From a virus: a stretch of DNA of 64,000 bases. The stretch lies in the IMG/VR virus record IMGVR_UViG_3300036828_000198, positions 3,409 through 67,408 of that record; one strand, 5' to 3'. The notes beneath the pieces are model-generated. The model was not told where the DNA came from. It ran no database searches and saw nothing but the letters and a program-made list of their open reading frames with translations. A program made the position numbers and the translations under genes. This document shows positions 21,076 through 22,325 of the stretch, in pieces (the first letter of the stretch is position 1; every line of letters starts with the position of its first letter).

Positions 21076-21568
21076 CCCCTACAGGTCTCAGATCAAGGAG
21101 GCTTGGCTTATACAGACTCCGGAACTTGTAGCCTACTGTGCTGGCTTCTTCGACGGTGAAGGGAGTATCAGCTTTCCGGGAGGATACCTAAGTCTCTCTG
21201 TAAGCCAACGTCTACTTGAACCGATCGAGAGATTCCAAGGCCTATACGGCGGAAGTATTTCGTATCCAACGGACAAGATCCCTACTTACATTGTACAAGC
21301 AGTTGGAAAGGAATTTCCAGTAGGTAACGTTACTTATCGCTGGTATAGAACGGGAGCAGCTAACTGCAAACCTATACTAGAAAGCTTTCTACCTCATCTC
21401 ACTGTTAAGCGCCTACAGGCCGAATTGAGCCTTGAATGGATAGGCCTAACAGCTGTCGTAGGATCTAATACTAAGCTGCCTATTCAGGTAGCTAGTCGGC
21501 GGGAAGCAATCATAGAGGAGATCAAGGCTGCTAAGAAGCCTTGGCTGAAAGGAGGTGGTGCCGTATGA
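21068..21568 (+). mobile_element. free-standing single-motif LAGLIDADG homing endonuclease
   Basis: AYCAGFFDGEGSI, SVSQ, YGGSI, FLPHLTVKRLQA. Confidence 0.9.
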
Positions 21569-22325
21569 GGCTGCTACAGATCAATAAGATCTTCGGCCCT
21601 ACTTGACCATCCAGGGGGAAGGTCCGTACGCAGGTCATCACTGCCTATTCGTTAGGCTGTTCGGGTGCAACCAAGAATGTACATGGTGTGATACATGGGA
21701 GACCTGGGCCGTTACTCCAGCAAAGGCAGCCAAGACGGTTCTTGGTAAGATGGCTAACAAGGCAGACGAATGTCATGAGATGACAGTCGAACAGGTTCTG
21801 GAAGAACTAATCAAGCTCTGGCCTATAGGTAGCAAGCCCACCATCATAGTTATCAGTGGTGGAGAACCTATGATGCAGCAGACAGCTCTTTCGCATCTGG
21901 TAGAGGAACTGCATTACCAATACTGTCCAGTTCACATAGAGACTGCCGGCACTATAATGCCAATGGTACCTGAGCTACTTCATCAGGGGTTCGATACTCA
22001 TGACCAGTACGTAGTTTCGCCCAAGCTGGCCAATAGTGGTAACCCTTACAGTAAGAGGTACAAGCCAAAGGTGCTTCGTGCCTTGAGAGATCAAGGTGCC
22101 TACTTCAAGTTCGTAGTATCAGGCCCATCAGACTTCGAGGAGATCGACCAGATTGTCAAAGAATGTAACCTAGATCCTAGCAGGATAATGTGCATGCCAG
22201 AAGGTACTCACCAGACTCTTCTGGACAGTAGAGCTCGGCAAATAGTAGACGAAGTACTCAAAAGAGGGTACGGACTTAGTCCCAGAATGCACGTCATGAT
22301 CTGGGGAGACGAGAGAGGACGTTAG
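21565..22325 (+). CDS. queE: 7-carboxy-7-deazaguanine synthase; frame broken by 5 nt at 21604-21608
   Basis: GGAGG RBS, MRLLQINKIFGPT-stop then TIQGEG, FVRLFGCNQECTWCDT, ISGGEP, IETAG, VSPKL. Confidence 0.92.

Follow-up and report, generated by a model that had tools for sequence, protein, structure and literature searches.

To our knowledge, natural translational bypassing is known in very few systems, namely gene 60 of phage T4 and its relatives, the mitochondria of Magnusiomyces, and the Hau3 terminase candidates. A related kind of interruption is said, after work of Friedrich et al. in 2007, to occur in Aeromonas phage Aeh1, where the nrdA/mobE gene lies in pieces after insertion of a homing endonuclease (HE). 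In T4 itself, the HE gene mobA and the 50-nucleotide (nt) bypass of gene 60 are described as parts of a single mobile cassette whose insert prevents self-cleavage (Bonocora et al. 2011, as covered in passages of bioRxiv 10.1101/2022.08.31.505936 and PMC5009743), and in T4 relatives other endonuclease families stand in MobA's place (bioRxiv 10.1101/2022.08.31.505936, same passages). For the terminase of the Streptomyces phage Hau3, the available sections of PMC10732093 describe UUA-led gaps of 10 nt, with 7-nt gaps in two related prophages; a contiguous product is formed in Streptomyces, and in E. coli, with a stop codon in place of UUA, the junction peptide was found by mass spectrometry. Synthetic stop-hops in E. 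coli include a class with a +5 shift (Weiss et al., 1987, in excerpt), and a review mentions, in its accessible part, that natural in-frame stop-hops are not known. We describe here a broken queE, a gene of the 7-deazaguanine DNA-modification pathway, in a 64-kb stretch of a 67.4-kb IMG/VR record of a soil phage; this stretch is the window throughout. New are a putative HE open reading frame (ORF) adjoining queE, a second HE-linked break of the same gene in a sister phage, and a hop design shared by both.

In the window, queE begins, behind a strong ribosome-binding site, as a 13-codon ORF that ends in TTC GGC CCT ACT (21601-03) TGA (21604-06). The downstream frame, opened by TTG 21603 or ACC 21606, is changed by -1/+2 and continues to 22325 for 240 amino acids (aa). 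The DNA matches letter for letter what the earlier note had read, a queE split at this TGA and resuming at this ACC. The UGA, which is followed by C, is the codon directly 3' of ACT and overlaps the landing codon ACC at 21606-08. Omission of the five nucleotides 21604-08 joins both frames into the motif FGPTIQGEG, which is unbroken in intact relatives, while the gene caller's queE product is a 191-aa piece only. All coordinates are collected in Table 1.

We lean, by a modest degree, towards an HE-linked translational bypass of 5 nt that yields full-length QueE, while a fraction of the ribosomes terminates and perhaps some reinitiate. The 5-nt gap would then belong functionally to the HE gene directly upstream. 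Judged from its position and from the T4 precedent, this HE would target the conserved FGPTIQGEG-encoding DNA of queE in phages that lack the HE, and five extra bases in the middle of the target would spare the carrier genome from cutting. Translation would start at ATG 21565 and bring peptidyl-tRNA-Thr onto ACU, with the slow UGA (then C) in the A site. The tRNA would unpair, the mRNA would slip by 5 nt, and re-pairing on ACC would allow decoding to continue from AUC 21609. The product would be full-length QueE with the consensus N-terminus; the hop, its efficiency and the activity of this QueE are what we infer from the layout. A share of the ribosomes probably ends at the UGA, and others may start anew at UUG 21603.

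The five nucleotides are real DNA and no assembly slip, because the identical sequence is found in an independent run and depth is 21 in the likely source. The second run (X2, record 3, 21569-22121) is from soil and belongs to another study; compared at the level of contigs, as was the source run, it shows 0 differences and 0 gaps relative to the window. In the likely source run X1, the depth of 21 extends across the queE break and no variant is listed. Among the RNA runs, none is listed as containing the queE stretch.

In sequence, the gene product resembles QueE, the radical-SAM enzyme 7-carboxy-7-deazaguanine synthase (CPH4 to CDG). The downstream ORF (21603-22325) matches Pfam Radical_SAM (E 9e-11) and PHROG 2076 'QueE-like' (E 4e-54), and QueE models take the first five places among its NCBIfam matches (E 1e-24 to 3e-12, under their equivalog cut-offs); an intact relative matches the PDB QueE entries 5TGS, 6NHL and 4NJG. 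Both QGEG and the CX3CX2C cluster motif lie inside the 240-aa frame and are invariant columns in an alignment of 27 sequences. The N-terminal (I/V)xEIFGPT is in the other frame, 5 nt apart from QGEG. In the same alignment, the motif residues G, P and T reach a conservation of at least 90%, and the nucleotides that encode IFGPTIQGEG are highly conserved among relatives. Against a B. subtilis-type QueE model, the 240-aa piece matches from profile position 12 and an intact relative from position 2. Conservation and profile coverage together suggest that the N-terminal segment is important for QueE.

A break at this place is exceptional. The motif is unbroken in 79 of the 80 viral loci from an IMG/VR QueE search, the sole broken one being that of the sister phage, in all 80 prokaryote-genome loci, and in 28 of the 29 assessable metagenome loci (31 were found, of which L088 and L109 are cut by contig ends). 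Its length is constant in all intact relatives examined. The window QueE itself stands apart: its own 191-aa call aside, the closest protein in a search of 5.8 billion is 57% identical (best 120 of 538 matches), known-phage QueE proteins are at most 34% identical, and a search of known-phage DNA with 20600-22400 gave no match. The nearest cellular QueE proteins, among the matches listed, are from Streptomycetaceae (Streptomyces, Streptodolium and Kitasatospora) with 50-53% identity, and in the genome scan the loci after Streptomycetaceae drop to 38-41%. Literature searches combining QueE with translational bypassing, phage 7-deazaguanine or homing endonucleases found no broken or bypassed queE.

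The second break is found in the closest relative of the window, whose QueE is 61% identical (locus L002). This locus belongs to a complete 98.8-kb record with terminal repeats, G001, which is syntenic with the window and shares a major capsid protein of 91% identity. A metagenome locus, L082, is identical to L002 (5,696 nt compared, 0 mismatches) and is thus not independent. In L002, the Shine-Dalgarno (SD) sequence and the ATG (2948) of queE are retained with the same 9-nt spacing as in the window. The first ORF runs through F-G-P-T-I-Q and is followed by 8 extra nucleotides, with the rest of queE in the -1/+2 frame; the break therefore lies in the same FGPTIQGEG motif, three codons beyond the position of the window's break. 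The downstream frames are open in full in both phages (240 codons in the window, 236 in L002), and the invariant residues of the family are kept. The downstream frame of L002 holds no ATG, GTG or TTG before 3169, which is beyond the Fe-S motif. Reinitiation therefore cannot rescue the L002 queE, and it cannot be a solution common to both phages.

Both breaks share features expected for a bypass site. Each is a frame-breaking insert that is not found in relatives, with flanks that match contiguous sequence there. Immediately after the take-off codon comes a slow codon, UGA in the window and UUA in L002, and a cognate landing codon (ACT/ACC and CAA/CAG, respectively) restores the protein. Hopping to this landing codon gives the exact consensus protein in the window and in L002 alike. 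An alternative hop in L002, from AUU to AUU at +5, would insert an additional Arg and lacks a slow codon in the A site. We simulated how often such a design arises by inserting random 5-mers or 8-mers at random positions of the first 25 codons, with 300,000 trials each. The design was defined as an unchanged upstream peptide, a stop or TTA codon directly after it, a cognate landing codon and the exact protein. Both observed sequences satisfy this definition, which was reached by 941 of the 300,000 inserts of 5 nt in the window and by 907 of the 300,000 inserts of 8 nt in L002, that is ~0.003 each and ~1e-5 jointly. The matched ACT/ACC stop-hop that the earlier note had proposed is partly supported, with comparative backing from a sister break of the same design without a start codon, from the rarity of the design and from the Hau3 precedent.

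Codon usage gives a reason to regard UUA as slow. TTA accounts for 9 of 17,961 codons in the window and 31 of 25,309 in G001 at 47-55% GC, although hundreds of TTA trinucleotides are present and the A/T-rich codons CTA, ATA and AGA are common. The few TTA codons of the window occur only in short or shadow ORFs or in the first 11 codons of an ORF call, near miscalled starts. Those of G001 are spread over 24 ORFs, 7 of which have them within the first few codons; most others are shadow-like, and one is in a real 720-aa nuclease ORF. UUA is plausibly slow to decode in both phages, and its near-absence suggests a host in which UUA decoding is limiting, Streptomyces being an example. The UGA of the window is followed by C, and UGAC is the weakest stop context in E. 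coli; the prfB frameshift site reads CUU UGA C. No tRNA genes were found within the window. In eukaryotes, UGAC is likewise given as a weak stop context (PMC5829715, in part), and Streptomyces phages are described as usually free of any UUA (PMC10732093, available sections).

The genes directly upstream of both breaks are likely the cause of the queE interruptions, and they had escaped the earlier note. In the window this is a free-standing 170-aa ORF. It matches phrog_5046 (E 5e-11), a family labelled 'HNH endonuclease', and Pfam LAGLIDADG_3 (E 0.024, under the cut-off), and its best match to PDB I-MsoI chains (E 4e-4) extends over the LAGLIDADG motif and residues 99-133. From sequence, the ORF thus resembles I-MsoI/I-CreI-type homing endonucleases weakly but consistently. 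L002 carries at the same spot an unrelated 169-aa NUMOD4/HNH endonuclease ORF (phrog_1492 E 1e-27; NUMOD4 E 1e-6). A predicted HE ORF stands directly upstream of queE in both broken genes and in 0 of the 16 intact loci listed, where queD, queC or a short ORF precedes queE. An endonuclease search of 8 flanking ORFs from 7 intact loci gave 0 matches. IMG/VR holds 283 distant relatives of the 170-aa ORF, and 0 of 80 loci with such a LAGLIDADG relative had a QueE match; the neighbourhoods retrieved with the HNH query comprise 7 loci, with a close match only to the query's own record.

This arrangement is similar to that of T4 mobA and gene 60, where a free-standing HE also lies directly 5' of a gene with a frame-breaking insert in a conserved region. 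As in gene 60, a stop codon follows the take-off codon (in the window), and take-off and landing codons are matched; as in the T4 relatives, a different HE family occupies the same place in the sister phage. There are also differences. The gaps measure 5 nt in the window and 8 nt in the sister phage instead of 50 nt, the short nascent chain leaves no room for a nascent-peptide signal, no significant take-off stem-loop is present, and the HE does not divide its target gene into two. In T4 the HE is MobA, whereas those described here are predicted from sequence to be of the LAGLIDADG type and, in the sister phage, of the NUMOD4/HNH type. With the terminase genes of Hau3, StrepC.1 and the S. catenulae prophage, both breaks share a very short, slow-codon-led, frame-breaking insert in a TTA-avoiding phage. 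Here too the flanks match contiguous sequence in relatives, and the L002 gap begins with UUA. Stop and UUA are interchangeable as A-site codon in Hau3, and here UGA is found in the window and UUA in L002. In contrast to Hau3, the gene is queE and not terminase, the window gap is led by UGA and not by UUA, and HE genes adjoin the gaps; the word 'homing' occurs nowhere in the accessible text of the Hau3 paper (PMC10732093). The comparison with Hau3 covers gap length, leading codon and flanks, with take-off and landing codons outside it. The stop-hops of Weiss et al. were engineered, whereas the queE hop would change frame and be needed for the enzyme. Aeh1 nrdA/mobE is comparable in that a conserved metabolic gene is interrupted in connection with an HE and presumably stays functional. 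There, two stable polypeptides assemble; the first piece of queE has 13 residues, and the second piece of L002 has no start codon. The queE case would thus appear to unite the endonuclease link of T4 with the very short, slow-codon-led gap of Hau3.

Signals that stimulate programmed bypassing, namely a nascent peptide, a stem-loop or an internal SD, are not found at the queE sites. The earlier note had placed the hop site in the loop of a hairpin. A stem between 21588-21600 and 21613-24 does form locally, but it is no better than chance (z -0.42; 153 of 500 shuffles fold equally well). The same IFG/GEG stem also forms in some intact relatives (L005 and L008), and the window hairpin is in part a consequence of the coding sequence. 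The 5' arm of the window hairpin is located 1-13 nt ahead of the take-off codon and would therefore be inside the ribosome at take-off. The local fold of L002 has z -2.29.

Several points weigh against a bypass. The wider folds are not significant in either phage (z -1.13 for 66 nt in the window, z -1.4 in L002), and upstream of either hop site there is no suitably placed SD-like element. The nascent chain at the hop counts 13-16 residues, which makes a nascent-peptide signal of the gene 60 type impossible, as the key part of that signal acts ~25-30 residues from the P site (PMC5009743, in the passages available). Bypassing that is not programmed occurs at slow codons only at a low level, according to PMC10732093 (available sections). 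Only two genomes carry a broken queE, and the case is built on their DNA sequence. Selection since the inserts is not measurable, because the divergence between the window and L002 is saturated at synonymous sites (pS 0.75, dN 0.335). The phage can probably borrow the QueE of its host, in which case a dead queE is tolerable. The design criteria of the simulation were fixed after the data were seen, and templated repair may favour repeated dinucleotides, which could make the p-value of the simulation too small; allowing for such repair, the joint probability is perhaps ~1e-3, a rough estimate that was not computed. The design is truly less rare than simulated, and its probability is still small.

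The first rival reading is a pseudogene left by a repair scar, which we regard as unlikely yet serious. The HE, or its arrival, would have cut the queE site, and imprecise repair would have left 5 or 8 nt, giving an allele that is cut-resistant but dead in a phage that uses host QueE or none. HE genes adjoin both breaks, and the inserts differ, as expected if one hot spot was hit twice independently; any selection after the insertions escapes measurement, recoding stimulators are found at neither site, and gene callers treat the window queE as truncated with its 191-aa product. A scar, however, needs the combination of take-off codon, slow codon and cognate landing codon with exact protein to arise by chance twice, at ~0.003 each. 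A dead gene is also hard to reconcile with downstream frames that are fully open with their invariant residues in both phages, with an SD and ATG that both genomes retain, at the same spacing, for the short first ORF, and with the intact remaining genes of the pathway (queC, queD and folE).

Termination at UGA with restart at UUG 21603 was the alternative raised by the earlier note, and it is possible in the window only; we consider it less probable still than the scar. It would give QueE without its first 12 residues, with the 13-aa peptide possibly helping in trans. The UUGA overlap is a classic layout for translational coupling, and QGEG and the Fe-S motif are downstream of UUG. This UUG has no SD of its own, though, and the product would be without the near-invariant G-P-T and the first 11 QueE profile positions. 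The way is closed to the sister phage, which has no start before 3169 and would need another solution for the same kind of break. A -1 slip of tRNA-Pro from CCU 21598-600 to CCC 21597-99, for the window only, seems very improbable. The C CCU run would let the tRNA re-pair perfectly, and no stop interrupts the -1 frame from 21588 on, but the A site would hold ACU, which is the most frequent Thr codon, a stimulator is lacking, L002 shows nothing comparable, and two extra residues would break the otherwise constant length of the motif. Least credible of all is a sequencing or assembly artefact: the record is a metagenome assembly, but the second run of another study and the depth in the likely source speak against it.

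The two sister phages represent a compact pair with the same motif, a UGA-led gap of 5 nt and a UUA-led gap of 8 nt, and two HEs. The pair poses the question of whether a slow A-site codon and matched codons are enough for useful hopping without elaborate signals, and of whether short bypass gaps recurrently serve selfish endonucleases for self-immunity. A wider proposal, which we make tentatively and would not yet bet on, is a general cassette of immunity by mini-bypass. Unrelated HE families (LAGLIDADG and NUMOD4/HNH) in TTA-avoiding soil phages would shield their genomes through slow-codon-led queE gaps of 5-8 nt that are hopped by ribosomes. The UUA version would tie the hypermodification enzyme to the status of the host's UUA-tRNA (bldA-type), and the UGA version to release-factor activity. 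For annotation, such genes are called truncated, as for the 191-aa product here, so phage 7-deazaguanine DNA-modification pathways may be mis-scored as incomplete.

Table 1. Coordinates of the queE break and of further features in the window and in the sister phage (queE locus L002, genome record G001).
Feature	Record	Position	Strand	Remarks
Shine-Dalgarno AGGAGG	window	21550..21555	+	9 nt ahead of queE ATG 21565; read from DNA
queE part 1	window	21565..21606	+	13 codons of native QueE N-terminus plus stop; alignable to N-termini of intact relatives
Proposed take-off codon ACT (Thr)	window	21601..21603	+	DNA reading; insert-design test
TTG overlapping stop (TTGA)	window	21603..21605	+	candidate termination-reinitiation start; no SD-like run seen upstream
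Coding gap TGACC, 5 nt	window	21604..21608	+	not in any intact relative (alignment); same in second soil run
queE part 2	window	21609..22325	+	resume codon ATC to stop; holds QGEG and CX3CX2C cluster motif
Proposed window hop	window	take-off 21601..21603		take-off ACU; A site UGA (then C); landing ACC, +5 nt; resume AUC
Proposed L002 hop	L002	take-off 2993..2995		take-off CAA; A site UUA; landing CAG, +8 nt; resume GGC
Local stem-loop	window	21588..21624	+	12-nt loop with take-off codon, gap and resume codon; -12.9 kcal/mol, not above chance
Putative LAGLIDADG-type HE ORF	window	21056..21568	+	free-standing, 170 aa, I-MsoI/I-CreI-like single-motif; stop overlaps queE start (ATGA)
queC	window	17793..18740	+	Pfam QueC E 8e-51
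queD (PTPS family)	window	20600..21031	+	Pfam PTPS E 1e-24
folE (GTP cyclohydrolase I)	window	22443..23030	+	Pfam E 5e-53
DpdA/TGT-like ORF, 255 aa (lead only)	window	23899..24666	+	language-model features and predicted structure
QueC with intein-sized insert	G001	26189..27991		
DNA polymerase with intein-sized insert	G001	14805..18071		
PD-(D/E)XK nuclease with intein-sized insert	G001	35267..37426		
Gene with intein-sized insert	G001	32520..34244		
Gene with intein-sized insert	G001	79801..82365		

Around queE, the window carries further genes of the pathway, and queC, queD and folE are intact, as the earlier note had stated. The 255-aa ORF downstream of folE is probably the DNA transglycosylase of the pathway, judging from model-based evidence. 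Its language-model features score 0.96 to a cluster in which 17% of the members carry PF23859 DpdA, and its predicted structure reaches template-modelling (TM) scores of 0.74-0.80 to DpdA/TGT clusters. It has no match in Pfam, PHROG, NCBIfam, PDB or a tblastn search of known phages, and a search of the record for the TGT family PF01702 gave no match. Between queC and queD lies a DJ-1/PfpI-family ORF (19742-20386, +; E 1e-8), for which G001 has a homologue of 36% identity in the corresponding position; this ORF may act in base modification as an amidotransferase-like partner. The window's family A DNA polymerase (24835-27336, +) has an N-terminal uracil-DNA-glycosylase-like domain, recognised in its G001 counterpart (Pfam UDG E 3e-24), and the nearest known phage polymerases are only ~30% identical to it.

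Both genomes are rich in mobile elements. G001 holds a second ORF akin to the LAGLIDADG endonuclease of the window (70198-70653, -; 35% over 63 aa). In five G001 genes, a single internal insert of intein size adds 215-330 aa relative to the window homologues, and QueC, an enzyme of the same pathway as QueE, is among them. Conversely, the SNF2-family helicase of the window (1126-3330, +) has an insert of ~285 aa relative to its G001 homologue, which resembles the QueC and DNA polymerase inserts of G001 and gives a weak Hint (intein) match (E 1.7e-4, under the cut-off).

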